From assembly GCA_016929755.1 (NCBI GenBank), contig JAFGIF010000146.1:1-44699 (forward strand): a stretch of 44,699 nt of DNA, in the 5' to 3' direction. The notes below the pieces were generated by a model. It had not been told where the DNA came from. It was given only the letters and a program-made list of their open reading frames with translations, and did no database searches. This document shows positions 22,951 to 41,713 of the stretch, one piece after another; position 1 is the first letter of the stretch; every line of letters begins with the position of its first letter. The translations under genes and the position numbers were made by a program. This DNA comes from Deltaproteobacteria bacterium. Its GTDB lineage: Bacteria > Desulfobacterota > Desulfomonilia > UBA1062.

Positions 22951-23943
22951 TTAGTGGTCCTGAGTTTCCAATGCCTTGGCGATTTCTACCGCCAGATTAT
23001 CCTTGGACCTTCCTGGTTTTCCGAAAAACTTCGGCAGTCCCTGAACCTTTATCTGCAAAACATCATTGACATATGTATCGAGCACAAGCACATCCCCGGG
23101 TTTCAAAGAAGAAAGTTCACGGGGGGATAAACTGGTGTTACCGAGATCTATGGTCAAATCCACAGCAACATTCATCAGTTCACGCTTAAAACGGTTGAGC
23201 CAGATATCATCGATTTTTACTTTTTCATTCGAAGAAAAGCTGGCATAGAGTCTGTCCCGAATCGGGTCGATAAGCATATAGGGAATGCAAACCATAATGT
23301 TTCCGCTTATATCATCCATGTCCACATCAAACTGCATGACAATAAGTACATCATCATTCGGGATTATACCGGCGAACTGGGGATTCATTTCACTTCTAAC
23401 ATATGAAAAATTAAGTTCATATACCGGCTTCCAGGCATTCTCCAATTCCTTGATCGCGGCGTCCACCACCTTGGTCAGCATGCGTTGTTCAATCGAGGTA
23501 AACTCCCGGCCTTCGATCTTCATTCCGCCGTAACCTCGGCCGCCGAAAAAACAATCGACCAAGGCAAACACCAGTTTGGTCTCCAAAACCACCAGGGCAT
23601 TTCCCCGTAGAGGTTCTATATTGATAATATGTATACTTGTGGGAACTGCCAGCGATCTCATAAAGTTGCCAAACTTAAGGCTGTCCAGCGAGATCGGCGT
23701 AACATCCACAATGCGTCTGAGCATATTTGACAGGGTATTTCTGAAAAACCGTGAAAATCGATCATTAATCGCATCCAGAGATGGCATGCGCCCACGAATT
23801 ACCTTATCCTGGGTGAAAAAATCATAAAGCTGCGATTCTCCACTTTCTCTTTCAACAGGAATGGCTGTTTCTGTCTCGATTTCTCCTGCCACAACGCCCT
23901 TTAACAGCGCATCAACTTCTTCCTGGCTTAAAATCTGACCCAT
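22951..23943 (-). CDS. fliM: Flagellar motor switch protein FliM
   Basis: CheY-binding motif ILSQEEVDALL, plus FFGG, REFTSIE and RSEMNPQF. Confidence 0.95.
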   Translation of the reverse strand: MGQILSQEEVDALLKGVVAGEIETETAIPVERESGESQLYDFFTQDKVIRGRMPSLDAINDRFSRFFRNTLSNMLRRIVDVTPISLDSLKFGNFMRSLAVPTSIHIINIEPLRGNALVVLETKLVFALVDCFFGGRGYGGMKIEGREFTSIEQRMLTKVVDAAIKELENAWKPVYELNFSYVRSEMNPQFAGIIPNDDVLIVMQFDVDMDDISGNIMVCIPYMLIDPIRDRLYASFSSNEKVKIDDIWLNRFKRELMNVAVDLTIDLGNTSLSPRELSSLKPGDVLVLDTYVNDVLQIKVQGLPKFFGKPGRSKDNLAVEIAKALETQDH

Positions 23944-24510: not shown

Positions 24511-25230
24511 CTACATCCGATATTTTAGCAGCACGATTTCTACCCGCCTGTTTTTTGCCATATCCTCTTCGACCGAATTGCCGGCTACGGGCCTTGTTGA
24601 TCCATAACCGGCTATACCGAAGCGTATCGGTGACATCCCGGCGCTATAAATAAAATAATTCAGAACACGCTCGGCTCTCTTGAGAGACAATGTTCGATTG
24701 ACTTCTTGGCTGCCCATTGCGTCTGTATGCCCATCAATAGAAATAAAGGAATCGGTTTCTTTCAGAGTATTTGCTATAGAATACAGCACCGGCAGCGCAT
24801 CGTTTTTTAGCCTGTCCGAACCACTGTCAAACAGAATATCACTACTTACCTTGATAACAAATCCTCTGGAAGACTCTCGAACCTCAATCGGATTTATCCC
24901 ATTCCCGGATATTCCTCTCAACTCTTCCTCCTCAAGCGCATGCAGCAAGTGTCCGTTTAATGTCGCAGCATCGAGGGTTTTGTTTTCCGGTATCGGATCG
25001 GGCAGGGTCAGAAGTTCTGCTCCGCCTTGTTGGTCTGAAAATTCAAGCGGCCCTAATGCATCATTGAAAAATCCGAAAACCTCCCGAAATGCCTTTTCAT
25101 CCATGGATGACATGGAAATCAGGAGCACAAAAAAAGTGATCAAAAGCGTAACCATGTCGGAAAAAGTGGTCATCCAGCCGTCGGTTTTAGGAATATCAAT
25201 ATATAGAGGGCTTTTATTATTCCTGCTCAT
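24511..25230 (-). CDS. motB: Flagellar stator B subunit, canonical (Asp present)
   Basis: WMTTFSDMVTLLITFFVLL and an OmpA-like domain (DGHTD, LSLKRA, NRRVEI). Confidence 0.9.
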   Translation of the reverse strand: MSRNNKSPLYIDIPKTDGWMTTFSDMVTLLITFFVLLISMSSMDEKAFREVFGFFNDALGPLEFSDQQGGAELLTLPDPIPENKTLDAATLNGHLLHALEEEELRGISGNGINPIEVRESSRGFVIKVSSDILFDSGSDRLKNDALPVLYSIANTLKETDSFISIDGHTDAMGSQEVNRTLSLKRAERVLNYFIYSAGMSPIRFGIAGYGSTRPVAGNSVEEDMAKNRRVEIVLLKYRM

Positions 25231-26021
25231 TACTGCTCACCCATTCTGAATTTGAAGCCTTTGTATTGGAAAGTTCTTATCGGTTCTGTTGGTTGCTCCA
25301 TCAGCATTTTATTGTGTGGAGTGTCACCGGGCAAGTCTCCGACAACCGCAATTTCAACCCTTCTGTTCAAACGCCTGCCGTACTCGGTTGCATTTGAACT
25401 GATCGGCTCATGTGAACTCAAACCATATGCCGCCATGCGTTCATCCGGGATTCCCTTAGCTCGAAAATAATTAAGCACAGCCAGGGCTCTGGCTGAAGAA
25501 AGAGCCCAATTTGAGAAGAACGGAGGCTCCTCCACGGGAATTGAATCGGTATGCCCGGCAATTATGATATGATTGTCGATACGGTTAAAAATAGAAGCCA
25601 GCTCATCCAAGACCACATAAGCCTCTGCTTTGAAAGCGTCTGTTTCCTGTTCAAAAAGCACATTCGATTTTAAGGTGATAATAGTACCCTGTTTCCCCTC
25701 AGATACACCGAATCCGCTTGTACTGACGGTATTCTTCAGGACAGTCCGTATCTGGTTTAAATCAACCGTATCCGGGGTAACAGGACTCGGTTTACCCGGC
25801 ATATTCATTTTTTCCTCGGCATTGTATGGGCTGTGGCCACCGGGAAGAATCCCGAAGCTCCCCAGCAGGGAATTAAATGCCAAGCGTTGCTTGCGAAAAT
25901 CTTGAACTCCAACGGTGCTCAGGACAATAAAAAAGGTAAGCAGAATCAACATAAGCGAGGTAAACAACATGGCCGTTAAATCTCTTTTCGGCTGGACATG
26001 AACCTTTCTTATACGTACCAT
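25230..26021 (-). CDS. motB: Flagellar stator B-like subunit, atypical (Asp replaced by Ser)
   Basis: LFTSLMLILLTFFIVL and an OmpA-like domain (AGHTD, NWALSSARA, NRRVEI). Confidence 0.85.
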   Translation of the reverse strand: MVRIRKVHVQPKRDLTAMLFTSLMLILLTFFIVLSTVGVQDFRKQRLAFNSLLGSFGILPGGHSPYNAEEKMNMPGKPSPVTPDTVDLNQIRTVLKNTVSTSGFGVSEGKQGTIITLKSNVLFEQETDAFKAEAYVVLDELASIFNRIDNHIIIAGHTDSIPVEEPPFFSNWALSSARALAVLNYFRAKGIPDERMAAYGLSSHEPISSNATEYGRRLNRRVEIAVVGDLPGDTPHNKMLMEQPTEPIRTFQYKGFKFRMGEQ

Positions 26022-26023
26022 TC

Positions 26024-26800
26024 CTATTCACCCGACAGCCCGGCGGCGATTGTCCTGAGTTGCGGTGACAAATACGCATGGAGCTTGCGCTCCACGATTC
26101 GCGGATTATCCCCGGCTGATATTGACATGATCCCCTCAATAATCATTCCCTTCTCCAGGGCCTCTTCACTGGAACGTGCGCCAAGCTTACCCGCCATCGG
26201 CATTGCGATCATGTTTGCCAGGATTGAGCCATAGAATGTAGTCAGAAGAGCGACGGCCATCGCGGGACCTATTGAGGATGGATCAGACATGGATTGAAGC
26301 ATCTGCACCAATCCAATCAAAGTTCCGGCCATTCCCATTGCCGGGGCGAATGATCCGATAGAGTTCAGAATATCGGCACCCCGTTTATGACGTTGAGCAA
26401 TATGTTCTATCTCTGTTTCAAGAATGTCTCTGATTGCCTGAGGCTCTAAACCGTCAATAACCAGCTCCAAGCCCTGCTTGAAAAAGGGATCATTCAGTTC
26501 GTTTACGGCGCTTTCCAGGGCAAGTATGCCTTCTCGCCTGGCCCTAGTGGCAAAATCTACAAAGGTGGGAATCAATCCATTCGTATCATGTTTCTGGACA
26601 AAAAAAACATTCTTTATGACTCCTGCCACACCCAACACATCCCGGAGGGGATAATTGATAAAAATAATTCCAAAGGTGCCTCCCAGAACGATCATGAGAC
26701 TTGGCGTATTGATGAAAAGGGATAGGGGACCACCCGACATTATCCCCATAAAGATCATACCAAAGGCGAACACAACACCGATAATCGTTGCGAGATCCAT
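26024..26800 (-). CDS. motA: Flagellar stator A subunit (MotA/PomA-like)
   Basis: MDLATIIG, ARREGILALE, APAMGMAGTLIGLV and IGPAMAVALLTTFYG. Confidence 0.93.
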   Translation of the reverse strand: MDLATIIGVVFAFGMIFMGIMSGGPLSLFINTPSLMIVLGGTFGIIFINYPLRDVLGVAGVIKNVFFVQKHDTNGLIPTFVDFATRARREGILALESAVNELNDPFFKQGLELVIDGLEPQAIRDILETEIEHIAQRHKRGADILNSIGSFAPAMGMAGTLIGLVQMLQSMSDPSSIGPAMAVALLTTFYGSILANMIAMPMAGKLGARSSEEALEKGMIIEGIMSISAGDNPRIVERKLHAYLSPQLRTIAAGLSGE

Positions 26801-26834
26801 ACACACCCCTCACTTTATTCTTGAGGATCAAGGA

Positions 26835-26850
26835 AGCAAGGGATGTGCCA
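26835..26850 (-). promoter_or_regulatory. sigma54 promoter of the motA-fliR operon
   Basis: Minus strand reads TGGCAC-atccc-TTGCT, an exact -24/-12 consensus 35 bp upstream of motA. Confidence 0.85.
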
Positions 26851-26991: not shown

Positions 26992-28509
26992 TTAACGTTT
27001 CAGGTTTATCAGTTCCTGCAACATATCGTCGGTTGTTGTAATAACCCTCGAGTTTGCCTGAAATCCGCGCTGGGTCGTAATCATCTTGACAAATTCCGAA
27101 GCAATATCCACATTAGATTGCTCCAGTGAGTTGGGAGCTATGCTGCCCAGTCCATTTTCGCCGGGATGACCGGTGATGGCACCTCCCGAGGCCATTGTAG
27201 CTGACCACAGATTGCCACCAACCTTATTCAATGCTTGATTATTATTGAATTTTGCCAACGCAACCCGATACTGGTACAAAATCTGACCATTGGAATAATG
27301 ACCGACCATTATCCCATTTGTGTCGACCGAAACATTTTCCAGAAAGCCTGACCCATAACCATCCTGAGTCTGATAAATCGTTGATGAGGATGAAGCATAC
27401 TGGGTTGACATAAAAGCCTGCGGTTCCCAGGTAGAGCTTGGCAGCGCTGAACCACCCGCTATATCTGCCACTGTTGCCGCGGTTCCGGCCTGCCAACTTG
27501 AACTGGTTGAGCGAAGACCCATCTCAAATGTTACGACCTGATCAACTCCATCAACAAATTCGGCCGTAAACTGAGGATATCCGTCTGTTGACATAGCGGC
27601 CTGGGTCCAGTTGGCAGCGGAGGTGGGATCACCTGTACCGGCTGTATTATAAACAAAGGCTGACATGTCAGTCAGATCTCCGGTCTCCGGCGAATATGTC
27701 AGGGTGCCCCGCATGAGAATGCCCTGCTCGGGCTGACCGTTGAAATCGTTACGCAGATCGTCATCAGGATTGCAGCAGACCATATACTCCCAGGTATTGT
27801 CAAAATCAGTTATTCCATTTTCGTACTCACAGCCTGCCGCATCGCTGGCCTTATCAAAATAGATTGTAACATCGTGCGCATTACCCAATGAATCATAGAC
27901 CCTGATAGCTGTCTGATAACCGTATGAGGAATCACTGATTGTTTCTGATGCGGTAGCATCAAATGCACCGAAGAGACTGTCGGAATTGGAGCTTTGAGTT
28001 GTGTCAAGATTGGTAATAGTGGTAATGGACTCTGTTGGCTGGGGTGGTGAGGTAAAATCACTGAGAACGATATCCTGTATTGATCCAACATCATTCCCGT
28101 TACCATCAAGAGCCCAGCCCCGCACCACATAGCCTGCCGGATTGATAAAATTTCCATCCTTGTCAAACCTGAATTGTCCTGCCCGCGTATAGAACTCGCT
28201 TTGACTGCCGGAATCCCTTACAATGAAAAATCCATTGCCGCCGATCGCCAGGTCCGTTGCATTGGAAGTGCTTTCAAATGTGCCTTGCTGATAGATGGTA
28301 TCAATCGAGCTCAAAGTGGTTCCCCGCCCAATCTGGGCCGTGCCGGATGCTGTCCCCACGGATTGAGAAAGAAGATCCTGGAAGGTTGTACGGCTGGCCT
28401 TGAATCCGATGGTATTGACATTGGCAATATTATCACCGATGACGCTCATGGCATTCCCATTGGTAGTAAGACCGCTGATGCCTGAAAATAATGAACTGGA
28501 TATACTCAT
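26992..28509 (-). CDS. flgE: Flagellar hook protein FlgE
   Basis: VIGDNIANVNTIGFK, DLAIGGNGFF, YTRAGQF, VYDSLG, LEQSNVD and QRGFQANSR. Confidence 0.96.
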   Translation of the reverse strand: MSISSSLFSGISGLTTNGNAMSVIGDNIANVNTIGFKASRTTFQDLLSQSVGTASGTAQIGRGTTLSSIDTIYQQGTFESTSNATDLAIGGNGFFIVRDSGSQSEFYTRAGQFRFDKDGNFINPAGYVVRGWALDGNGNDVGSIQDIVLSDFTSPPQPTESITTITNLDTTQSSNSDSLFGAFDATASETISDSSYGYQTAIRVYDSLGNAHDVTIYFDKASDAAGCEYENGITDFDNTWEYMVCCNPDDDLRNDFNGQPEQGILMRGTLTYSPETGDLTDMSAFVYNTAGTGDPTSAANWTQAAMSTDGYPQFTAEFVDGVDQVVTFEMGLRSTSSSWQAGTAATVADIAGGSALPSSTWEPQAFMSTQYASSSSTIYQTQDGYGSGFLENVSVDTNGIMVGHYSNGQILYQYRVALAKFNNNQALNKVGGNLWSATMASGGAITGHPGENGLGSIAPNSLEQSNVDIASEFVKMITTQRGFQANSRVITTTDDMLQELINLKR

Positions 28510-29206: not shown

Positions 29207-30778
29207 TCAGGCAAAAATATCAAGCCCGCCTATATACAATGGTTTTCTTTGCAGTTCCTCGCTGTAGACAGTAGAGCGGGCCTGCTGAAAATCATGACCC
29301 ACTTTGCCGGTTCTTTTTTGTTTTTGGTCTTCACCCTGGTTCTGCCTGTCTTGCTCATTAAGTGTATATGTATTGGCAGCCGTCCGCTCATCCGGAGAGC
29401 CAAGAAAGGTAAAATTATTAATACGAATCCCCTGCTCAGCCAGAGACTCTCGCAGGACATGGATATTCTGCTGCAGGATATCACGGGTAAGGCTCTGGTC
29501 TGTTCTGAAAGTTGCTTCAAGTGTTCCATTATGCATCTTAAGATTCACATCAACCCTGCCGAGCATCGGTGGATTGAGTTTCAATCGGAATTGTCCCTGA
29601 TTATTATTGAAGCGTACAAACATATTCCGACGCAGTTGATCCATGACGAGCTGTGTGTGTCTGTCCAAAACAGCCTGTGAATCTCCACCAAGCCTCTCAA
29701 CCAGTGTCAGAAAGGCCTCTTTGCTGAACACACCCTTGGCATCTGCCAGAGCCAGATTCGGCTGCCACAGCTTGATAATCGATTCAATATCAGCCCACTC
29801 CATATCACTCATGGCTGTCTTGAGAAACGAAAGGGCCTCTTTAATCTCAAGTGGAAGAGAACCTCTATGGTTGGCACTCAGGTAGACGGATATTCTGCGT
29901 CCGATCAAATCAAGGGCTTTGCCCCGGGCATCCTGGCTGTCTGCAAAAAACAAGTCTTCAAGCACATTTCCCTTGATGTCAAAGGTGTTCTTTAGGGTAC
30001 GTAACAGGCGATCAGTCACACCCGAGTTGCTGATTTTTGCTCCTGCCTCGGGCACTGCCTTCATGGAGTCAACAGCGATGTGGGCACCAAAGTTTTGCGT
30101 GACTCGCGCGATGATCTCACTCAAAACAGTTTTTACAGCCGGATCTTGATTCAGGCATTGTTCCACAGTAATTAGCTGAGGTTCGGAAGTTTTTGTGCCC
30201 AAAGTTTTCATCACTTCCTGGCTTATATGGTTACCGGACATATCTTGTTTCGATGGTATTAATTGCTCCTTTTCATCGCTCGATGATGCAGTTATCAGAT
30301 TATCCAAAACCTTACGACTGCTGCAGGTTTGTGAACGCAGCGTGATATTAATTGCATCTGCCAGCTTTATTTTTATATCAGCCTTGAGTGTATCATCCGA
30401 CATGATCATATTCAGGCTCTCTGAATCCAGGCCGCATTTGCTCAAAACAGATCTAAGGCCTGTATCAGAAAGGGCCTGCCCATCGCCGCTGAGCAATGAG
30501 CGGATATCAGCCGAGCTTATACCCATTCCCTTAAGTGCGTCGATAAAGCGGGATACAATCACCTGGGGCTGACTTCCAGCAAAGGACTCATTCCCGATGG
30601 AATCCGTCTCAAGAGAAATTTGCTCTGACATTTGTTCGTGGCGGTTTTTGCCTTTGGTCTGAGCAGTTTCAAGCATAGTCTCGAAATTGCCTTCATCTGT
30701 GCGATGTGAAAAAACCTTCTGCAACAGATCCACTGCTCCGGTTGCTATCCCCAAAAGTTTCACTAAGGCTACCTGCAT
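29207..30778 (-). CDS. fliK: Flagellar hook-length control protein FliK
   Basis: C-terminal LKLNPPMLGRVDVNL...LRESLAEQGI domain; lies upstream of flgD. Confidence 0.85.
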   Translation of the reverse strand: MQVALVKLLGIATGAVDLLQKVFSHRTDEGNFETMLETAQTKGKNRHEQMSEQISLETDSIGNESFAGSQPQVIVSRFIDALKGMGISSADIRSLLSGDGQALSDTGLRSVLSKCGLDSESLNMIMSDDTLKADIKIKLADAINITLRSQTCSSRKVLDNLITASSSDEKEQLIPSKQDMSGNHISQEVMKTLGTKTSEPQLITVEQCLNQDPAVKTVLSEIIARVTQNFGAHIAVDSMKAVPEAGAKISNSGVTDRLLRTLKNTFDIKGNVLEDLFFADSQDARGKALDLIGRRISVYLSANHRGSLPLEIKEALSFLKTAMSDMEWADIESIIKLWQPNLALADAKGVFSKEAFLTLVERLGGDSQAVLDRHTQLVMDQLRRNMFVRFNNNQGQFRLKLNPPMLGRVDVNLKMHNGTLEATFRTDQSLTRDILQQNIHVLRESLAEQGIRINNFTFLGSPDERTAANTYTLNEQDRQNQGEDQKQKRTGKVGHDFQQARSTVYSEELQRKPLYIGGLDIFA

Positions 30779-30811: not shown

Positions 30812-30827
30812 AGCAATGAGAATGCCA
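30812..30827 (-). promoter_or_regulatory. sigma54 promoter of fliK-flgD-flgE
   Basis: Minus strand reads TGGCAT-tctca-TTGCT, 34 bp upstream of fliK. Confidence 0.8.
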
Positions 30828-32189: not shown

Positions 32190-33872
32190 TCAATCTTTCT
32201 GCCACAGCTCGAATCGCCCCTTTCCACTTGCTTTGGCAGTATACAGAGCGGTATCAGCCATTTTTATCAAATCGGCTTCCCGACTATTTGTACTGTTTAC
32301 CATAGCAGCCCCGATGCTAACCGTTATATTAACGACTTTGTTCTCATCGATCTTAAATGGTGTGGTGTTAACACTCTCACAAATCCTTTGTCCCACCAGA
32401 CAGGAATTTTTTGCATCGGTATTGGGAAGAATTACTGCAAATTCATCACCCCCGTAGCGGGCGACGATATCAATGTTGCGCATTTTGCCTTTAAGAACCA
32501 TTGCAACCTGTTTGAGAACGACGTCTCCTCCTTGATGGCCCCAAGTATCATTGATCTTTTTGAAATCATCAATATCCAGCATCAATAGCGAAACATATCC
32601 GTCAGTCATTCTGCGTACCCGCTCGACTTCTTCGGTAAGGCGCTCTTGAAAATAGCGGTGGTTGTAAATATCGGTCAGACCGTCTGTTATGGACCGTTGA
32701 TTCAATTTTTCATTGAGTATCTGTAATTCTTGAGTTGCTATGGTTAATTCGCTGGCTCTTGCTTCAAGGGCATCTTTGACTTCTGCCATCTCCCATAAGG
32801 TCTTTTCCGAATCGGCATTTTTGGCCAGCAGTTCTTTTTCAAGTACCTTTTTGTGGGTTATATCGGTGAAAAGCATCAACGCCCCGGCCTTACGTCTCTT
32901 GCGAGCAATGTTCCACGCTGTAAAGTCTATGTCAATGTTAGTTCCCTGTTTTGTTGTAAGCTGACACTCACGTTTCAGGATAGTTCCTTCAATATAGAGT
33001 TTTTTAAAATCGTCCCGGAGTGACTGCACCTCATGCGATGCAACAAATTTACTGAAATCACAACCAATGATCTCATCCTTGGAATATCCTGTGTGGATAC
33101 TGACAAATTCATTACAATCAAGGACCACACCTTTTCTGCTTATATACAGAATTCCAGTAGGAGATCTGTCAAATAGCTCGCGGAATCTATTCTTGAGATC
33201 TTTATGACGGGTTTCAAGTCTTTGCTGTTCGGTAACGTCGTTTATGAACAACCACACCAGACGACCACCATTGTGGTCATCCGTACAACCACCACTAACA
33301 CTAGCATATATATGCCTGCCGTCTCTTATAGAAAACAGAAGTTTTTTAATCGGCAATATATCAGGTTGATTTCCACAAACACTGTGATACCACTTGATGT
33401 ATTCAGGCCTGCTGCGGGTGGAAATCAGGCCGAGAAACTGTTTTTCTGCAAGTTCATCAAGCCTGTATCCAACAATCTCTGAAAATTTATGATTTGCAAA
33501 AATGATAAGTCCTCTGGACAATATCACACAACCGGCATCGTGATTTTTGACGATCTTTGCAAAAATATCCGTATCTATCTTATCAGAGGTGCTATGCGTG
33601 TCTACTTCTTCGCCGTTAAGGCTGAAAAGCAGCAAATCATCTAACTTAGTGCCTATGAAACTGCACTTCAGATGGTTATCCTGAGCTGAACTCAGTGTGA
33701 TCTCCTGCATGTCCCGGTGTATACTCAGGGAATCCGGGTTAGACAGGTTGACTTGATCATCAAAACCCATCCGGCGGGCCAGAGCAGGGCTTATATATTC
33801 GATCCGATCGTGCCTTAGTGCCAGCACAAAGTCAGAGATGAAACCCGAAAGTTGAGCTAGATCAAAGACCAT
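32190..33872 (-). CDS. PAS-domain diguanylate cyclase
   Basis: Two PAS-like repeats, a coiled coil, TDGLT, DIDDFKKINDTWGHQGGD, an RNID I-site and RYGGDEF. Confidence 0.92.
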   Translation of the reverse strand: MVFDLAQLSGFISDFVLALRHDRIEYISPALARRMGFDDQVNLSNPDSLSIHRDMQEITLSSAQDNHLKCSFIGTKLDDLLLFSLNGEEVDTHSTSDKIDTDIFAKIVKNHDAGCVILSRGLIIFANHKFSEIVGYRLDELAEKQFLGLISTRSRPEYIKWYHSVCGNQPDILPIKKLLFSIRDGRHIYASVSGGCTDDHNGGRLVWLFINDVTEQQRLETRHKDLKNRFRELFDRSPTGILYISRKGVVLDCNEFVSIHTGYSKDEIIGCDFSKFVASHEVQSLRDDFKKLYIEGTILKRECQLTTKQGTNIDIDFTAWNIARKRRKAGALMLFTDITHKKVLEKELLAKNADSEKTLWEMAEVKDALEARASELTIATQELQILNEKLNQRSITDGLTDIYNHRYFQERLTEEVERVRRMTDGYVSLLMLDIDDFKKINDTWGHQGGDVVLKQVAMVLKGKMRNIDIVARYGGDEFAVILPNTDAKNSCLVGQRICESVNTTPFKIDENKVVNITVSIGAAMVNSTNSREADLIKMADTALYTAKASGKGRFELWQKD

Positions 33873-34619: not shown

Positions 34620-35474
34620 TTACCTGGTATGGAGTCGCAGGCGGGGCATACTCACTGTACCGCCGAGACTGAATTTTATTCCTGTATCCGATCCGCTTTG
34701 ATTTACATTTAACAAACTCGTTATAAATTGGGGCAGCTTGGCCTCTCCTGAAAGGTTCAGTCTTGATTTAGAAATATCTTGCACTACACGGATCCGGCCC
34801 TGTACTGTACCGGATATATCTCCGGAAAGCTCCGCCTTGTCGATTACGAGCAGCCCCTTATCCATGTTGGCTTCAAATTCCAACATTTCGAAAGAGAGTT
34901 CGTTCAGGGGCAGCGTTGAGATGAAAAGCGGCATGGTCCCGTTTTTCCATACCGCTGAGACATTGCCACTTGCTCTGTACAGAGCACCGGGAGAAGTAGA
35001 GCAGGATAGATTTCCGCTAAGCACACCTTTGATGTTCGATCCCTCAGGGATGAGTTTCGAAAACCGCTCGATATTCACCTCATCAAAATTTAATACAATT
35101 TTAACAGGACCACCGCGACCTCTGATAGGTGTCGCAACCATGCCCTTGAGCCTGCCCTCATCCATCCGGGATTTGAAATCGAGTTTCAGATCACCTTCCA
35201 GAAACCCCAGAATGCTAGGTGACACTATCAGGTCTTGGGCAATGGGCTCCTGATTTATTTTAAGATTGTCAATGGCCATCCCCAACGGAAGTCGGGATTT
35301 AACATGCCCTAAAGAAACATCCAGGCCAAATGAGGTTTGCATGGCATACTCAAGCCTGTCCCTAAGCACATCATAGGGAAACAAAAGGTAAACAAACAGC
35401 AGAAAACAGACAACTGCATAAATAATAAACCCTGCCTTTGTCCAGAAAGAATAGGCTCTCCTCTCTCTATCCAT
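34620..35474 (-). CDS. gspN: Type II secretion protein GspN
   Basis: TM helix, then LFPYDVLRDRL, then a beta-rich body; last gene of the gsp run. Probable start is the ATG at 35474. Confidence 0.75.
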   Translation of the reverse strand: MDRERRAYSFWTKAGFIIYAVVCFLLFVYLLFPYDVLRDRLEYAMQTSFGLDVSLGHVKSRLPLGMAIDNLKINQEPIAQDLIVSPSILGFLEGDLKLDFKSRMDEGRLKGMVATPIRGRGGPVKIVLNFDEVNIERFSKLIPEGSNIKGVLSGNLSCSTSPGALYRASGNVSAVWKNGTMPLFISTLPLNELSFEMLEFEANMDKGLLVIDKAELSGDISGTVQGRIRVVQDISKSRLNLSGEAKLPQFITSLLNVNQSGSDTGIKFSLGGTVSMPRLRLHTR

Positions 35475-35967
35475 ACAGCACCACTTGGAAGGTGATATCC
35501 AAATTTTTGTCCCGCTCAATACGTTTGATGTTTAAGCGCTTGATCCGTAGATTAAACGGACATGAATCAATACCATATAACAGGCCAATCAAATCATCCT
35601 GATAGATACCGCGTATCTTCAGTTCCACCGATTCCTTCGATGAACCGCTCACATCACCAATTGGTTTCATATACTCAATACGCTCGTTGATACCCAGTTC
35701 TTTACCAAGCTCTTCGAGAAACCCGAACAGGGTAAAATCCTTGTCAGTTGCTACGCCCTGACTTTCTTTGGATAAATTCTGCACGGAACGTATCTTAGCG
35801 GAAAGCTCGTAGACCTGTTTCAACTGGGAATCCTGCGAGATTACAACTTCAGCCAAATCTTTTCTGTTTTCAATCAGGGGAATCAAAACCCCGGCCACAA
35901 GGATGAAGGCTGCAACGAACAGGGCTCCAAGGCCGATCAGCAGCTTTTCTCGCTTCGAAAATTTCAT
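35467..35967 (-). CDS. gspM: Type II secretion protein GspM
   Basis: SKREKLLI plus TM and a short periplasmic domain; follows gspL. Confidence 0.8.
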   Translation of the reverse strand: MKFSKREKLLIGLGALFVAAFILVAGVLIPLIENRKDLAEVVISQDSQLKQVYELSAKIRSVQNLSKESQGVATDKDFTLFGFLEELGKELGINERIEYMKPIGDVSGSSKESVELKIRGIYQDDLIGLLYGIDSCPFNLRIKRLNIKRIERDKNLDITFQVVLYG

Positions 35968-37484
35968 CCTGCACTCCCTTTCTTACAGATCAGCTTGAAT
36001 TTCACGCGCTGATCCTGTTTATCAACATTGGCGCTCACGATTTTGACATCCGTAATATATTCAAGCTCGCCAAGCTTGCCCTTTATCCGTTCCACGTTAT
36101 CGTACGATTGCGTATCTCCGGCCAAAGTAATACTGTTCTCATCAATGGTAATTATATCAAGTGTAATTTCTATATCCCGGGTAAATTTTAAACTTACATC
36201 GTGCAGAATCTGCAAAGGGGTATCCTGAGGTGTTTCAACAAATATTCCCGATTTGCTGGATAAAGCCGCTAAATGCTGCTGCATCTGTTGAACCGGTGCA
36301 ACCATGGGAGTCCCCTGGGGCATGACCGCAGTAAACTCCTTGCGGATTTTTGCCACGATTTCATCTTTGAGCTGCGATTTAAAATATACATCAAGACCAA
36401 GCCAGGCAATCCAGAGGATAATCAGGATGGCAAGGGGCTTGGCCCACGCGCGGGCATAACCCTTCAGGTTTTCCAATTTTCTGGTGTAGGCCAGATCACC
36501 TTGACGGAAGTTGATACTGTCACTGCTGTCAACCCCCCTCAAGGCCAGCGAGACCGCCATAAATGATTTCAGAATATCGTTAATGGACCCATCAGAAACA
36601 GCCTCCCTTGCCGGAGGAATCTCCACCGTAATGCCGCCTGCTCCTTCAAAACACTCAGCCAGGTCTTCGATCCGCTGGGTATATCCGGTGGGGATCAAAA
36701 CATATTCATCCTGCCTCTGGCCAACCCGTTCAAGGGCTATTAAAAGCTCACGTATCAGTGGATTCAAACGCTTCCCTGCCCTGATTCCCTGATGAAATTG
36801 CTTGTCATATGGTTGATCGTTAGAGAAATCCCCGTCGCTATCCAGGTCCGTAAGTATTCTTTTGAAACCAAAAGGGAGCGCTCCGATATGTGCCAAATGA
36901 TTTCCGTGCAAGATGGCAAAGGTGCTCTCATGCCAACCCATATACAGGATTATATAATTGGAATCGGATGCAAGATCAAAAACATTTTTTGCTCCAGCCA
37001 CCAGTGCCCCGGAGGGTGCATCAACGATTACCGGGTCCAGGCCGATATTTTTCAGTCCTGCAACAAGGTTCCTGACAGAAGATGAGCGTGCGGCAACAGC
37101 ATCGACTATCGTTAGTTCTCCTGGATTTTTCCCTGCCAGGACAAAATCCACTTCCAAGTCACTCTCGCCGAAGGGAAGCAGTGTTTCCATCTCGGCCTGT
37201 ATCGTGCCGGCTATTTTTTTACGGTCGCTAAACGGTCTCATCAACTGACGATGCATAACCTCGCTTTCAGGAAGACTTACTATGCAGGTATCCAGAGTCA
37301 TCCCCAGATCTTTGAGCACGGTTTTTACATCATCTGTGACATGGTTTAGGGCCTGACCGTTTTCGTCCAGTTCTCGTTGAAACCGCAGGAGTTTCTCTAT
37401 GGTGAATTCAGACATGGTAGCCTTGACAACACAGGCATGAATGCTCTGATTATCCCAATTAACTCCCAAAGTATAGCGTGCCAT
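35964..37484 (-). CDS. gspL: Type II secretion protein GspL (PilM/PilN-like)
   Basis: Actin-like cytoplasmic part, INFRQG motif, TM and a PilN-like tail. Confidence 0.82.
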   Translation of the reverse strand: MARYTLGVNWDNQSIHACVVKATMSEFTIEKLLRFQRELDENGQALNHVTDDVKTVLKDLGMTLDTCIVSLPESEVMHRQLMRPFSDRKKIAGTIQAEMETLLPFGESDLEVDFVLAGKNPGELTIVDAVAARSSSVRNLVAGLKNIGLDPVIVDAPSGALVAGAKNVFDLASDSNYIILYMGWHESTFAILHGNHLAHIGALPFGFKRILTDLDSDGDFSNDQPYDKQFHQGIRAGKRLNPLIRELLIALERVGQRQDEYVLIPTGYTQRIEDLAECFEGAGGITVEIPPAREAVSDGSINDILKSFMAVSLALRGVDSSDSINFRQGDLAYTRKLENLKGYARAWAKPLAILIILWIAWLGLDVYFKSQLKDEIVAKIRKEFTAVMPQGTPMVAPVQQMQQHLAALSSKSGIFVETPQDTPLQILHDVSLKFTRDIEITLDIITIDENSITLAGDTQSYDNVERIKGKLGELEYITDVKIVSANVDKQDQRVKFKLICKKGSAG

Positions 37485-37499
37485 AAAAAATCCTTAATC

Positions 37500-38510
37500 T
37501 TAATATAATTTATAATACACTATTCTGGGCCCGTTGTTAATGCGTTCCACAACGGCCCGAAGGTTTACCATAGCTCCGCTTGGCATTACACCCTTGATGT
37601 CTACCCGGAAACGGGTGCTCATCAAGGTTATTACATTGTTCTGCAACCACAAGAGTTCCTTTTCAAGATCTGAAATATTTTCCGATTCTAACACTCTGAA
37701 TCCGATATTGTCTATGAGAGCGTTAACATTCTCAGGTGTTACCGGTCGAGAATCCAGAATCGTCTGCACCACATCCTCTTCATTCAGACCTTCAGGAATA
37801 ATACTGAAAAGAACCTGCTCTGATGCAGTATTAATATTGATTTTCCCATTGGTACCGGCAGTAATATAGTTTGCAACACCCTCATATTCTTCTGTGCCAA
37901 AAAAGTATTCCGGAGCCATTCCTTTTACCAGAAGAATTTCCTCAGTTACGTCCAGCGGACCGTTTTTACAGACATACGGGTTTTCCAGGGCCTCGTAGTA
38001 TTCTGTTTCAGCCCCAAAATCTGTCTCATCATCAGGGTCGATCCAATCAATCAGGGCGTCGAGCAGATCATTCAGATCATCCGCACTTATATCAATCTCC
38101 AATTGGCCAAACAGCCTCATAAACTGAGATCTCCTGAAATCATCAGCTTTTCCATCCTCGGAGACCAGGCTGTTCAAATCAAATTTGGAACACTCGTCTA
38201 CAAGCGTTCCGGTAAAACTCGGTCCTTCCAGAAATGCAGATGCAGTCATGGCATACTCTGAGAAGTTGGCCCAATCTTCATCATATGCATCATAAGCCGG
38301 ATCATCCTGTGCCAGCAATACCAGAGCAGCCTCAACTCCTGCCCGGGAAACATACTGGGCCTGAAGTGAATCCCTGAAATTATAGGCCAGCTCGATATCA
38401 ATACCCTGATCAGTACTGAATTCAACCACCATAACGGTGAAAAGCGCCACCACAGCGATCACTAGAATCAGGACAACTCCGCTTGAATTTTTAACAAGCT
38501 TAAGCATCAT
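37500..38510 (-). CDS. gspK: Type II secretion minor pseudopilin GspK
   Basis: G/VVLILVI leader, DECSKFDLN, LIDWID, EILLVKGM and KININTA. Confidence 0.9.
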   Translation of the reverse strand: MMLKLVKNSSGVVLILVIAVVALFTVMVVEFSTDQGIDIELAYNFRDSLQAQYVSRAGVEAALVLLAQDDPAYDAYDEDWANFSEYAMTASAFLEGPSFTGTLVDECSKFDLNSLVSEDGKADDFRRSQFMRLFGQLEIDISADDLNDLLDALIDWIDPDDETDFGAETEYYEALENPYVCKNGPLDVTEEILLVKGMAPEYFFGTEEYEGVANYITAGTNGKININTASEQVLFSIIPEGLNEEDVVQTILDSRPVTPENVNALIDNIGFRVLESENISDLEKELLWLQNNVITLMSTRFRVDIKGVMPSGAMVNLRAVVERINNGPRIVYYKLY

Positions 38511-39223
38511 TGATTTTCCTGCGCCCGAGTGAGCTTTATACCTGTAAGCGGCAGGGGTGACACGCCGCTGAAACTGATGTCTTTTTCTCTCTGCCTGAAG
38601 GTCAGGGTAACCTTGACCCGTGAGGGAAGTGTAAGGCTTTCATCCAAATCCCATTCTTCGCTCTCCTGGGACCTATCATCATAATAGATGATCTCCAGCG
38701 CTACTACATCCTCGGCTATTTCCATGGCATTACCGGCTTCGGTAATACCGTAATGGGGAGTGCAATCTTCCCGTCGCATGAGGAAAAACAAGTCCTGTTT
38801 TTCCTCCATTTCCTTCAGATAATACCCCACCTCACACAAACTGCCGGTTTTCTGGCTCAATCCTATGTCACAGGTGGTGGTGAAAAAAATACTGTCAATG
38901 TTGGCCTCGTTGTTGGTCTCGTTGCGACCAACAAAACGATACAATGAAATTTCATCATCCGTCATCTCCCGTGCGTCGGCAGGAATATAGGCACAGCTGA
39001 TATCTTTGATAATACGATCCATTACTATGCGTACCATCTGATACACCTCTCGCTGGTACTTCACGGATTCAATCGCCCGATGAGACTGGTAAAACGTAGA
39101 GGTTACAATCGTAATTACAATAGCGGCTATTGCAACAGCCAGCAATATTTCCAAAAGGGTAAACCCCTTAAAATGACGAAAGGTAGGTGATGAACTGTGT
39201 TTCAAAACTGCTCTTTTCTCCAC
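38507..39223 (-). CDS. gspJ: Type II secretion minor pseudopilin GspJ
   Basis: KGFTLLEILLA prepilin motif and C-terminal LPSRVKVTL. Start uncertain (GTG at 39223 or TTG at 39205). Confidence 0.82.
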   Translation of the reverse strand: MEKRAVLKHSSSPTFRHFKGFTLLEILLAVAIAAIVITIVTSTFYQSHRAIESVKYQREVYQMVRIVMDRIIKDISCAYIPADAREMTDDEISLYRFVGRNETNNEANIDSIFFTTTCDIGLSQKTGSLCEVGYYLKEMEEKQDLFFLMRREDCTPHYGITEAGNAMEIAEDVVALEIIYYDDRSQESEEWDLDESLTLPSRVKVTLTFRQREKDISFSGVSPLPLTGIKLTRAQENQ

Positions 39224-39542
39224 CCCAGTTTATGTTCAAGGTGTATTTATAATATCCATCAAGCGGGGTGAGTTCGATGGTTTCCTTATACGTGTAGCCC
39301 TCAAAAAACCCTTCGGTATCTTTTCCAAAATCCCCCTCGTTGCTGTCTGTGCTAACCGGGTCGCCAGAGGATATCAGCTCGGCAATGTGCTCTTGTGCCA
39401 GAAGGGTTGCTGTAGTTATGAACTTTGACCTCATTGCCATGTTGATCCCCTGATTTTCCGCCTGGAGAAGCCACACAAAGGTAATGCTCAAAATTACCAG
39501 GGCAATCAGCACCTCCAGAAGCGTAAAACCTTTTTTAGCCAT
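39168..39542 (-). CDS. gspI: Type II secretion minor pseudopilin GspI
   Basis: MAKKGFTLLEVLIALVIL and ATLLAQ; size and position fit. Confidence 0.82.
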   Translation of the reverse strand: MAKKGFTLLEVLIALVILSITFVWLLQAENQGINMAMRSKFITTATLLAQEHIAELISSGDPVSTDSNEGDFGKDTEGFFEGYTYKETIELTPLDGYYKYTLNINWGGEKSSFETQFITYLSSF

Positions 39543-40041
39543 AGGAAATCTCCACAAAATGATCGTACACTCTGAAGTTACCGGAAAAAGGCTTGATTAC
39601 AAGGGTGTAGGTCTTGCCATAACCGGCCTCCAGGTAGATTATTCCCTGTTCGACTAATCCTTCCGGTGTAATACGCAGATCAAGTTCCCCCTCCTGCTTG
39701 GGAATCTGGTAAGGAGTCTTTATTTTTTTGATGATAACGCCTTCAGGAAGGGTCCTTTCCTTGAGCATTTCAGGAATGACGCCTGAGCTTTCCGGTTTCA
39801 GATAGATCCCGATCGAAGATTGGTCGATATCGAAATGTACCAGATAGGTCTTGTGCTGGGTAATTGCCCAAGACCTGGCCAATTGAATCATGGTCCCCAT
39901 ATCACGGGTCACCCGGTCCATGTTCGAGGAAAACAGCCCCCCGAAAAGCGAGGGACCGATATAGCCTAAGGTAATACTGATAATAACCAGAACAATCACC
40001 AGTTCGAGAAGCGTAAATCCTCTACCGCTGCTGTTCTTCAA
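39535..40041 (-). CDS. gspH: Type II secretion minor pseudopilin GspH
   Basis: RGFTLLELVIVL and LARSWAI; follows gspG. Confidence 0.8.
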   Translation of the reverse strand: MKNSSGRGFTLLELVIVLVIISITLGYIGPSLFGGLFSSNMDRVTRDMGTMIQLARSWAITQHKTYLVHFDIDQSSIGIYLKPESSGVIPEMLKERTLPEGVIIKKIKTPYQIPKQEGELDLRITPEGLVEQGIIYLEAGYGKTYTLVIKPFSGNFRVYDHFVEISYG

Positions 40042-40474
40042 CGTCCCAGTTCCCTATATCGGCATTCTTGCCATCCCCACCGGGCTGTCCGTCAGCCCCA
40101 TAGGAAAACAGATCAAAACTGTTGGAATTGTGTACACCGGGATAGAGATAAACAAATTCATTGCCCCAGGCATCTTTTGGTACACTACTCTTTTCCAGAT
40201 AACCTTCTTCTCGCCAATCAGAAGGAATGTTGCCCACGGTTGGTTTCGCAACAAGCGCTCTTAAGCCCTGTTCGGTAGAGGGATAATCCTGATTATCGAT
40301 ACGATAGATATTCAACGCATTTTCCAGTGCTTTTATCTGAATCATGGCCTGCGTCCGCCGGGCTTCTTCAGGCCGACCCATGATCTGAGTTCCGACATAG
40401 GTGGCAAGGATGCCCAGAATCACGATTACGATCAAGAGTTCAATAAGGGTAAATCCCTTTTCATTCATGGTCAC
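40022..40474 (-). CDS. gspG: Type II secretion major pseudopilin GspG
   Basis: GFTLIELLIVI, YPSTEQGLRAL, PKDAWG and SYGADGQPGG..NADI. Confidence 0.95.
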   Translation of the reverse strand: MTMNEKGFTLIELLIVIVILGILATYVGTQIMGRPEEARRTQAMIQIKALENALNIYRIDNQDYPSTEQGLRALVAKPTVGNIPSDWREEGYLEKSSVPKDAWGNEFVYLYPGVHNSNSFDLFSYGADGQPGGDGKNADIGNWDVEEQQR

Positions 40475-40489
40475 ACTCCTTAGTTTTTC

Positions 40490-41713
40490 CTAACGTATTA
40501 TCTGACTGATCTGCAACATGGGGAAAAGGATTGATATCACAACGAACGCGACCGAGACTCCCATAATGAGAATCATAAACGGTTCAAGCACCGAGGTGAG
40601 TCCTGCTACGCTTGTCTCAACTTCTTCTTCATAAGCATCAGCCACTCGAAGCAACATATCCTCCAGTTTCCCGCTTTTCTCGCCAACGCTGATCATATGG
40701 ATTAAAATCGGCGGAAATTCGCCGGACTTTTTCAGGGGAGCTGCAATGCTGGATCCATCCATTACCTCTGCAATCGAATCTTCTACGGCGGATTCCATCA
40801 CTTTGTTCTGTACTACCGATGCCACTATACTCAAGGATTCCAGAATCGGTACCCCGGAAGCCAGTAAAGTACCCAGCGTCCTGGCAAATCTGGCCACAGA
40901 TATCTTTTTATACACCGATCCGTACAGAGGTATCTTCATCTTGATCCGATCGAATTTCATTGAACCACTCTCGGTTCTTTTCCAGCGCACAATAGCATAT
41001 ATGATACTTATGCATGCCAGAAGAACAATCCACCAGGCTGTAATAAAAAAATCGCTCAGAGCAATCAGCATACGTGTCGGCAAGGGTAGAACCTGATTCA
41101 TACTCTCAAAAATGGTGATCACCTTCGGCACGATCGAAGTTAACAGATAGATTAGAACCACACTGCATACACAGAATAACAGAATCGGATATATCATGGC
41201 AGCAACAATCTTCGATCTCAGACGGTGCTGCCCCTCCATGAATTCTGCCAGTCTCAGAAGAACGATATCCAGGGCACCGCTCACCTCTCCCGAACGCACC
41301 ATATTCACATATAGATCCGGGAATGTTCTTTTATGCTGGGACAAGGCATCCGCAAAGGAAGATCCTTCATTTACTGAATCTCGCACCTGGGCAATTGTCT
41401 TTTTGAGCACTGTTGAATCGGTCTGCTCATACAGGGCATTGAGGGCATCCACCAGAGGTATCGCCGCTGCAATCAGGGTTGAAAGCTGCCTGGTCATGAC
41501 AGTAATATCTTCGGAGCCAATTTTTCCAAAAAGTTCCTTCAGCGATATATCCCATAACCTTGCAGTATCTGCGGCAATTTCTTCAGAGATGGACTTTACG
41601 AATATTCCCTGGGAGCGAAGCTTTAATTTGGCTTCCCGCAAGGACAATGCATCCACCATGCCCTTGGTATCCTTGCCTTTTTCTGTATACCCATTCCAGG
41701 TATATACTGCCAA
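40490..41713 (-). CDS. gspF: Type II secretion inner-membrane platform protein GspF
   Basis: TRQLSTLI, GEVSGAL, AMIYP, GEKSGKL and LEP; TTG start behind SD AAGGAGG. Confidence 0.93.
   Translation of the reverse strand: MAVYTWNGYTEKGKDTKGMVDALSLREAKLKLRSQGIFVKSISEEIAADTARLWDISLKELFGKIGSEDITVMTRQLSTLIAAAIPLVDALNALYEQTDSTVLKKTIAQVRDSVNEGSSFADALSQHKRTFPDLYVNMVRSGEVSGALDIVLLRLAEFMEGQHRLRSKIVAAMIYPILLFCVCSVVLIYLLTSIVPKVITIFESMNQVLPLPTRMLIALSDFFITAWWIVLLACISIIYAIVRWKRTESGSMKFDRIKMKIPLYGSVYKKISVARFARTLGTLLASGVPILESLSIVASVVQNKVMESAVEDSIAEVMDGSSIAAPLKKSGEFPPILIHMISVGEKSGKLEDMLLRVADAYEEEVETSVAGLTSVLEPFMILIMGVSVAFVVISILFPMLQISQIIR

Follow-up and report, generated by a model that had tools for sequence, protein, structure and literature searches.

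A selectively maintained MotB paralogue lacking the ion-binding aspartate, encoded between motA and motB in a flagellar operon of the Desulfobacterota

The flagellar stator genes considered here lie on contig JAFGIF010000146.1 (assembly GCA_016929755.1) of a sulfate-reducer-type bacterium of the Desulfobacterota; the whole stretch of DNA that was analyzed, 44,699 nucleotides in length, is referred to as the window. The core flagellar operon is found on the minus strand in the order fliK-flgD-flgE, promoter, motA-motB1-motB2-fliL-fliM-fliN-fliO-fliP-..-fliR, in which a single gene for the stator A subunit, motA, is followed by two tandem motB-type genes. The second of these, motB2, encodes a canonical stator B subunit, whereas the first, motB1, encodes a MotB paralogue in which both the ion-binding aspartate (Asp) and a conserved tryptophan (Trp) are absent. 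The paralogue is conserved in this state, is under purifying selection and goes back to a single origin. The genes and sites concerned are as follows.

26992-28509, minus strand: flgE (hook), the gene upstream of the promoter
26835-26850, minus strand: sigma54-type promoter consensus TGGCACatcccTTGCT, a consensus match 35 nucleotides 5′ of the motA ATG
26024-26800, minus strand: motA, stator A subunit, 258 amino acids from the ATG, PomA/MotP-like (Pfam MotA_ExbB, 9.9e-33)
25230-26021, minus strand: motB1, MotB paralogue of 263 amino acids in which neither the ion-binding Asp nor the conserved Trp is present
25956-25958, minus strand: motB1 codon 22, TCG, serine (Ser), at the site of MotB Asp32 (E. 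coli numbering)
24511-25230, minus strand: motB2, canonical stator B subunit, 239 amino acids, with Trp19, Asp25, plug and OmpA-like domain
25156-25158, minus strand: motB2 codon 25, GAC, Asp, the ion-binding residue
23953-24501, minus strand: fliL (Pfam FliL, 4.2e-25), 9 nucleotides after motB2
22951-23943, minus strand: fliM

The genes of the operon are nearly spacer-free. The stop codon of motA and the start codon of motB1 are separated by 2 nucleotides, the TAA stop of motB1 and the ATG of motB2 overlap by base 25230 (TAATG), and both motB reading frames are intact, so that the tight packing of motA-motB1-motB2-fliL described in the first-pass annotation, which was made from the sequence alone, is borne out. 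The start of motA is taken as the ATG at 26800; the computed open reading frame begins upstream, with a GTG at 26806. Owing to the TAATG overlap, translation of MotB1 would be coupled to that of MotB2.

MotB1 and MotB2 are 31% identical (BLASTP, expectation value [E] 4e-23), and their membrane helices align without gaps, which places Ser22 of MotB1 (codon TCG) opposite Asp25 of MotB2 (codon GAC). TCG differs from GAY at all three positions, and the early claim that the substitution is no base-call slip stands, as the orthologues carry Ser, alanine (Ala) or threonine (Thr) at this site. According to a preprint by Deme et al. (10.1101/2020.05.12.089201), the corresponding Asp32 is the invariant protonatable residue of MotB, and Trp26, six residues before it, is completely conserved and touches a ring of MotA Pro173 and Tyr217, its replacement in W26A abolishing motility. 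This Trp is also absent from MotB1, in which the column holds Thr, Gly, Phe and other residues. In MotB2, Trp19 and Asp25 are invariant in all 34 aligned rows and Thr22, Phe23 and Ser24 are invariant or nearly so, while the matching MotB1 columns, 16-22, vary. Beyond this point the two proteins keep in step: columns 23-37 of MotB1 (L-x-x-I-L-L-T-F-F-I-x-L-x-S-M) are conserved in register with columns 26-40 of MotB2, and the conserved Asp41 and Lys44 are in register with the MotB2 plug, Asp41 being aligned with MotB2 Asp44. Inspection of the sequences by eye revealed no substitute acidic residue in the four transmembrane segments (TM1-TM4) of MotA or elsewhere in the MotB1 helix. Among MotB1 proteins, mean pairwise identity amounts to 57% for the helix and 65% for a GSFGILPGG motif, compared with 45% for the wall-binding domain and 25% for the linker; the helix is thus the best-kept part of the protein except for the GILPGG motif. 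From these alignments, MotB1 appears to have lost exactly the cytoplasmic, ion-handling half of the helix, whereas the outer half, a plug-like helix and the domain anchoring it to the wall have been retained.

The peptidoglycan-binding domain of MotB1 was described as complete in the first-pass annotation, and Pfam OmpA indeed matches over its full profile, positions 1-98 of 98 (2e-16; 60.6 bits against a gathering cut-off of 27.2); MotB2 matches MotB_plug (1.2e-15) and OmpA (6.7e-19). Within the wall-binding domain of MotB1, GHTDS, SNW, R178 and NRRVE are invariant or nearly so. The AlphaFold2 model of MotB1, with a mean predicted local distance difference test (pLDDT) value of 70, comprises a membrane helix (15-38), a second, plug-like helix (42-55), a disordered linker (56-86), an OmpA-like domain (88-227) and, at the C terminus, a hairpin that is only weakly predicted. 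A profile of the MotB1 family matches canonical stator B chains at 1e-44 to 1e-36, including the solved chains 8ucs (Clostridium sporogenes MotB) and 6ysf at 1e-44 and PomB at 1e-38, and its alignment covers positions 1-228 with B. subtilis MotB (6ysl) and 1-240 with C. jejuni MotB (6ykm). In a fold search, the OmpA-like domain of MotB1 matched the periplasmic domains of the stator proteins MotS, MotB and PomB, with template modelling (TM) scores of 0.8-0.88 by target, and also that of TagL, a type VI anchor. Like canonical MotB, PomB and MotS (6ykm, 6ysf, 6ysl, 8ucs, 8bri), MotB1 has a single N-terminal helix with an LL(T/A)FF core, a plug-like helix, a flexible linker and an OmpA-like domain of the pattern GHTD...SNWxLS...NRRVE, and is encoded right after motA. 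Unlike them, it has Ser, Ala or Thr in place of Asp, no Trp, a variable cytoplasmic helix half, a GxFGxLPGG motif and a C-terminal FxYKGFxFxLEEQ tail, and is always encoded beside a second, canonical MotB. MotB1 therefore has the fold, domain and gene-context features of a stator B subunit but lacks both of the residues by which a working member is defined; judged by its sequence, it is a true MotB-type protein. The gene lies beside motA in the flagellar operon in all 30 loci of the host's own order and, elsewhere in the phylum, in 20/21 and 13/13 Asp-less loci, the sole exception being a locus that ends at a contig end.

The tail of MotB1 (25233-25340, residues ~229-263) carries the conserved FxYKGFxFxLEEQ sequence after the wall-binding domain. 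It is found in Asp-less and Asp-bearing first copies, is absent from MotB2, is predicted to form a weak beta hairpin and is without a known counterpart.

Conservation was examined initially within the host's own order, in which an orthologue at E ≤ 1e-30 is present in 45 of 52 genomes and in all 34 of high quality. The order flgE-motA-motB1-motB2-fliL-fliM is found in 30/30 loci, two of which end at a contig end within motB2. In 29 of these loci the MotB1 residue at the Asp position is Ser, and in the remaining one it is Ala; MotB2 holds Asp in all 30. Furthermore, about 54 close relatives recovered by a protein search are 39-87% identical to MotB1, are nearly all 261-264 amino acids long and are annotated as “OmpA family protein” or “MotB”; Asp does not occur at column 22 of the alignment of the close relatives. 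The median ratio of nonsynonymous to synonymous substitution rates (dN/dS), estimated pairwise by the Nei-Gojobori method from the 149 usable of 378 pairs (dS < 2 in all three genes), is 0.10 for MotA, 0.27 for MotB1 and 0.29 for MotB2. MotB1 is hence under purifying selection with no sign of relaxation. Since the orthologues are Asp-less and dN/dS is as low as that of MotB2, a base-call slip or decay of MotB1 is excluded, and with it two of the three outcomes that the first-pass annotation had listed as refuting, namely retention of Asp by most orthologues and relaxed selection; support for the Ser22 codon comes from the orthologues, as contigs from two other public runs stop short of codon 22. 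One locus, L008, from a record titled “uncultured Bacteriovoracaceae bacterium,” has flgE-motA-B1-B2-fliL-fliM arranged nearly as in a genome of the host's own family, its MotA is 85% identical to that of this genome, and it adjoins locus L090 in the tree; the taxon label of the record thus looks wrong.

Distribution across the phylum was surveyed with a profile of the N-terminal part of MotB1. On calibration, core Asp-less proteins reached ≥70 bits with this profile and ordinary MotB stayed at ≤50 bits, a distinction that the full-length profile cannot make. Scores of at least 60 bits were obtained in 57 of 401 sampled genomes of the phylum. The loci of 50 of the 57 were read, and 41 of them, from 14 family codes, are Asp-less. 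In these, motA is found 5′ of the Asp-less copy wherever the upstream side is complete, and an Asp-bearing motB followed by fliL is found 3′ in all, as anticipated by the first-pass proposal to survey for a conserved Asp-less first copy. FliM is encoded in 238 of the 401 genomes, and the arrangement is accordingly present in at least about one sixth of the flagellated genomes of the sample. The count of 41 is a lower bound because divergent Asp-less copies, from records titled Desulfobacteraceae, Desulfobacterales, Nitrospirota and Troglogloeales, score only 30-43 bits. A pattern-based locus search, with patterns common to ordinary MotB, yielded an Asp-less first copy in 5 of 80 loci (L008, L027, L031, L039, and L060). 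In addition, a profile search of 1.84 billion protein cluster representatives gave 3874 matches at E ≤ 1e-30; among the 115 representatives of 190-300 amino acids within the best 150 of the 3874, Ser stands at the Asp column in 48, Ala in 25 and Thr in 2, Asp itself is present in 37 (with one row doubtfully aligned), and 3 show a gap. Look-up of the wider family in a protein atlas returned generic “MotB/OmpA family” names and uncertain taxa, and the taxon names given for relatives are the depositors' record titles, or codes. Taken over these surveys, the sequences indicate that the Asp-less MotB1 is a phylum-wide and old feature.

A tree of 102 MotB-type proteins unites the 33 that are Asp-less in one group with a Shimodaira-Hasegawa-like approximate likelihood ratio test (SH-aLRT) value of 96, requiring a single state change, and nearest to this group are the partner MotB2 proteins of the same genomes. 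A second type of pair was found in nine loci from five family codes, listed here.

L138, 1423-2301 and 671-1408, minus strand: pair of the sister form, found also in L140, L145, L152, L154, L155, L158, L161, and L163

In this sister form, the first copy bears Asp (YTDL or YADL) and also has the Trp, and it retains the MotB1-type motif, domain and tail. The pair sits between flgI and an flgJ-like gene (flgI-B1′-B2′-flgJ), also near flgH, with no motA adjacent. The motA locus was read in one sister-group genome (L164), where fliL comes straight after motA, and two sister-group genomes (97% and 99% complete) encode exactly one MotA homologue and exactly two MotB_plug genes, namely this pair. A tree of 129 rows computed without the Asp column places the Asp-bearing type within the Asp-less group (SH-aLRT 96 and 95 with 33- and 47-row sets); L060, a Desulfobacterales copy, falls outside the Asp-less group in this tree with weak support. 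The helix of the first copy is 59-78% identical to that of its own partner in the sister form (median 67%, n = 9) as against a median of 30% in Asp-less pairs (n = 36), and identity between partners in the wall-binding domain is about 29-34% in both pair types. The simplest, tentative reading of these sequences is one old tandem duplication of motB, one loss of Trp and Asp, and a later replacement of the helix by that of the partner in one lineage; the order of events is tentative because both trees were computed in quick mode and without an outgroup root. Acquiring a canonical Trp/Asp helix would have no point unless the first copy still fills a B place. The additional loss of the Trp, the phylum-wide and old distribution and the nested sister lineage with Asp again all go beyond the first-pass annotation.

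The proteins were further examined by complex prediction. MotB2 with MotB1 gave a score of 0.83 (0.83, 0.84 and 0.74 in separate runs) against 0.00 for the best of three controls; of the reference cases, 116 of the 157 solved complexes and 2 of the 215 mismatched pairs attain this mark, which is a rough yardstick here because the alignments supplied were our own. At least 96% of contacts are shared between the runs, with a partner pLDDT of at least 73. In the predicted dimer the chains touch at their N-terminal strands, along their helices and plugs and through their wall-binding domains, with Ser22 and Asp25 on the outward side. A MotB1:MotB2 dimer is therefore supported at the level of a model. 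The first-pass annotation had offered a B1/B2 heterodimer or a braking subunit: the dimer is backed by this fold test with its controls, which cannot tell a heterodimer from homodimers, and nothing specific to a brake was encountered.

The explanation that we favor, with a confidence somewhat short of even, is that MotB1 takes one of the two B places within the MotA5 ring and is paired there with MotB2 (A5:B1:B2). Entry of MotB1 into the ring, its pairing with MotB2 rather than with itself, and the manner in which such a unit would turn are what we infer. Pairing is suggested because the two genes form a strict one-to-one tandem with coupled translation, because the sister-group pair has moved together and serves a single MotA, and because the outer helix half and plug are retained and the fold test was passed; a plain membrane anchor is unlikely because the MotB1 helix is among its best-kept parts. 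An A5:B1:B2 unit would carry one ion-binding axle residue instead of two, and MotB2 would carry the ions. MotB1 would add a second, different periplasmic part, consisting of a MotB/PomB-type wall-binding domain, the GxFGxLPGG motif and the C-terminal tail, and thermal motion, or other units geared to the same rotor, would have to supply the half-step for which there is no Asp.

Several points weigh against this arrangement. MotB1 is without the Trp that contacts the MotA ring and its cytoplasmic helix half is varied, which fits a protein outside the ring equally well. MotB2 is complete by itself, and A5(B2)2 units should consequently work without MotB1. E. coli MotB Asp32 mutants are dominant-negative, and a unit with one Asp might thus be dead. 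The wall-binding subtypes differ, with SNWxLS in MotB1 against a shorter Pal/MotS-like loop in MotB2. MotB_plug is not reached by MotB1 of the window at E ≤ 0.01, although about half of its relatives have a precomputed match. Finally, the dimer prediction may reflect the solved MotB homodimers, and it does not tell B1:B2 from B1:B1 and B2:B2.

In one alternative, MotB1 forms homodimers within MotA5, and non-conducting A5(B1)2 units would stand beside active A5(B2)2 units as placeholders, idlers or brakes. Such units might keep stator sites occupied, support the FliL ring or determine the number of engaged active units. The outer helix half, plug and wall anchor that mark MotB1 as a true MotB apply equally here, and MotB2 is self-sufficient by sequence. 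A precedent exists in Aquifex, in which one MotA serves two MotBs that were tested apart as A/B1 and A/B2 (PMC4525482); on this view, the nested Asp-bearing form would represent another active stator like that of Aquifex. By contrast, a dead unit made from the same message by coupled translation would compete for MotA and rotor sites in every cell, and a regulator that would make dead units useful was not seen in the operon: the gene survey of the window revealed no PilZ, EpsE-like or other clutch gene there. Ser and Ala, moreover, are freely swapped at position 22, which indicates that no special locking chemistry is kept. Homodimeric MotB1 units are for these reasons considered unlikely.

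Alternatively, MotB1 might act outside the MotA ring as a membrane-anchored periplasmic accessory protein on the cell wall that helps to retain stators and binds MotB2, FliL or the P ring through its plug-like helix, the GxFGxLPGG motif or the C-terminal tail, in a role likened to that of MotY/MotX or PflA/PflB of other lineages. Loss of both residues that couple MotB to MotA, together with the variable cytoplasmic helix half, would fit such a protein, and the two family-specific periplasmic parts, the GILPGG motif and the FxYKGFxFxLEEQ tail, the adjacency of the sister-group pair to flgH, flgI and the flgJ-like gene, and the missing Pfam MotB_plug match of the window MotB1 point in the same direction. 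Against this stands the residue-by-residue conservation of the outer helix half with MotB2 (L-I-L-L-T-F-F-I-x-L-x-S-M), which is unexpected for an anchor, and the exchange of the sister-group helix for a Trp/Asp helix resembling that of its partner. Furthermore, MotY matches the family profile over the OmpA domain only (2zf8, positions 123-227). An accessory role outside the ring is likewise judged improbable. The last alternative, that MotB1 is functionless, being either a duplicate in decay or an artefact of assembly or base calling, to which the absence of two residues invariant in working MotBs and the independent contigs ending before codon 22 could be put down, is refuted by the orthologue survey (the same state in 30/30 loci of the own order and 41 genomes of the phylum sample), by intact frames with a dN/dS on par with MotB2 and by the single old clade of Asp-less proteins in the tree (SH-aLRT 96), and retains practically no probability.

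Known systems with comparable gene sets differ from the A5:B1:B2 arrangement in informative ways. The motA/motB1/motB2 genes of Aquifex aeolicus share the single motA and the two tandem motBs, the periplasmic regions of which are 23% identical; the N-terminal and membrane regions are nevertheless 97% identical and both carry Asp, so that Aquifex resembles the Asp-bearing sister group and not the Asp-less form of the window (PMC4525482). The AglR/AglQ/AglS gliding motor of Myxococcus likewise combines one MotA-like protein with two MotB/TolR-like partners, for which heterodimers are left undecided in a review (PMC9389320); AglQ and AglS, unlike MotB1 and MotB2, both keep the mid-membrane Asp, are TolR-like and serve no flagellum. 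MotY of Vibrio and Pseudomonas shares the OmpA-like wall-binding domain for stator retention, to which its profile match is confined (2zf8, 8z5n). MotB1 has a MotB-type membrane helix and is accordingly not of the MotY type. MotY itself is not known to possess such a helix or a plug, nor is its gene known to lie between motA and motB. In F1-ATPase, the alpha and beta subunits illustrate that after duplication one partner in an obligate hetero-assembly may lose the working residue and stay structurally essential; the proteins are unrelated to MotB, and the analogy extends only to the persistence of such a loss. No description of an Asp-less MotB paralogue was found in a search of full-text literature, which did not cover subscription journals, and priority may therefore lie elsewhere.

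In the accepted stator model, as presented in the preprint, the two Asp residues alternate, one for each 36-degree step (10.1101/2020.05.12.089201). Among the 5:2 ion-driven rotary motors described so far, MotAB, PomAB, ExbBD, TolQR and AglRQS are all discussed with an acidic residue on each axle chain. To our knowledge, the same holds for Zorya. A selected Asp-less paralogue beside motA is thus a natural experiment on the two-Asp alternating model, with a one-site stator, deliberately non-conducting units, or a MotB turned into a new motor scaffold as the alternatives at stake and the nested Asp-regained lineage as a built-in comparison. The far-reaching claim that a natural 5:1:1 stator, MotA5-MotB1-MotB2, operates with one ion-binding Asp in many Desulfobacterota and some Nitrospirota is rather unlikely at present. 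If it were true, a 5:2 rotary motor could run on a single site, with an undriven 36-degree half-step, the ions per turn would be halved, giving a thrifty gear for life on very small ion gradients, and the lineage in which Asp was later regained would have switched back. For annotation, products labelled “OmpA family protein” or “MotB” whose genes separate motA from motB in these phyla belong to a distinct family, recognizable by (S/A)L..ILL(T/A)FF together with GxFGxLPGG.

With regard to expression, the first-pass annotation had placed the stator genes under a sigma54 promoter. The site upstream of motA, TGGCAC-N5-TTGCT, is a perfect match to the sigma54 consensus, although a single match per window is not above chance, since 62 of 100 shuffles of the 45 kb gave two or more matches with at most one mismatch. 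A site of the form TGGC-N8/9-TGCW is, nonetheless, found 42-64 nucleotides 5′ of motA in 31/31 loci of the host's own family and in 39 of 46 loci overall. Because a matching site recurs in all 31 own-family loci, the promoter, assigned by consensus, appears to be conserved, and the claim is thereby upheld. The same sigma54-type transcript would yield MotA, MotB1 and MotB2; in two metatranscriptome runs from one study, no contig over the motA-motB1-motB2 region was found. A second sigma54-like site with one mismatch (TGGCATtctcaTTGCT) is located at 30812-30827 on the minus strand, just 5′ of fliK (29207-30778).

MotA of the window is best matched in NCBIfam by the sodium-type models PomA (282 bits) and MotP (274 bits), both under the equivalog cut-offs. 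Its LLTTFYG motif is one that we take to be typical of sodium stators, and the coupling ion may, on these sequence features, be sodium. Orthologues of MotA are 72-86% identical and start with MD(L/F/I)A.

The same genome encodes a second stator pair on another contig (L006), at 1222-2091 and 525-1229 on the minus strand and away from flagellar genes, comprising a MotA of 289 amino acids and a MotB of 234 amino acids with Asp (WSMVD), and there are three more matches to the MotA/ExbB family. Desulfovibrio species are stated to have three or four stator sets in a review (PMC9039648). Elsewhere in the window, upstream of the flagellar genes, a PAS-GGDEF diguanylate cyclase is encoded at 32190-33872 on the minus strand, and a type II secretion/type IV pilus-like block (PilM-like, GspK-, GspG- and GspF-like proteins and pseudopilins) occupies 35467-41713 on the same strand.

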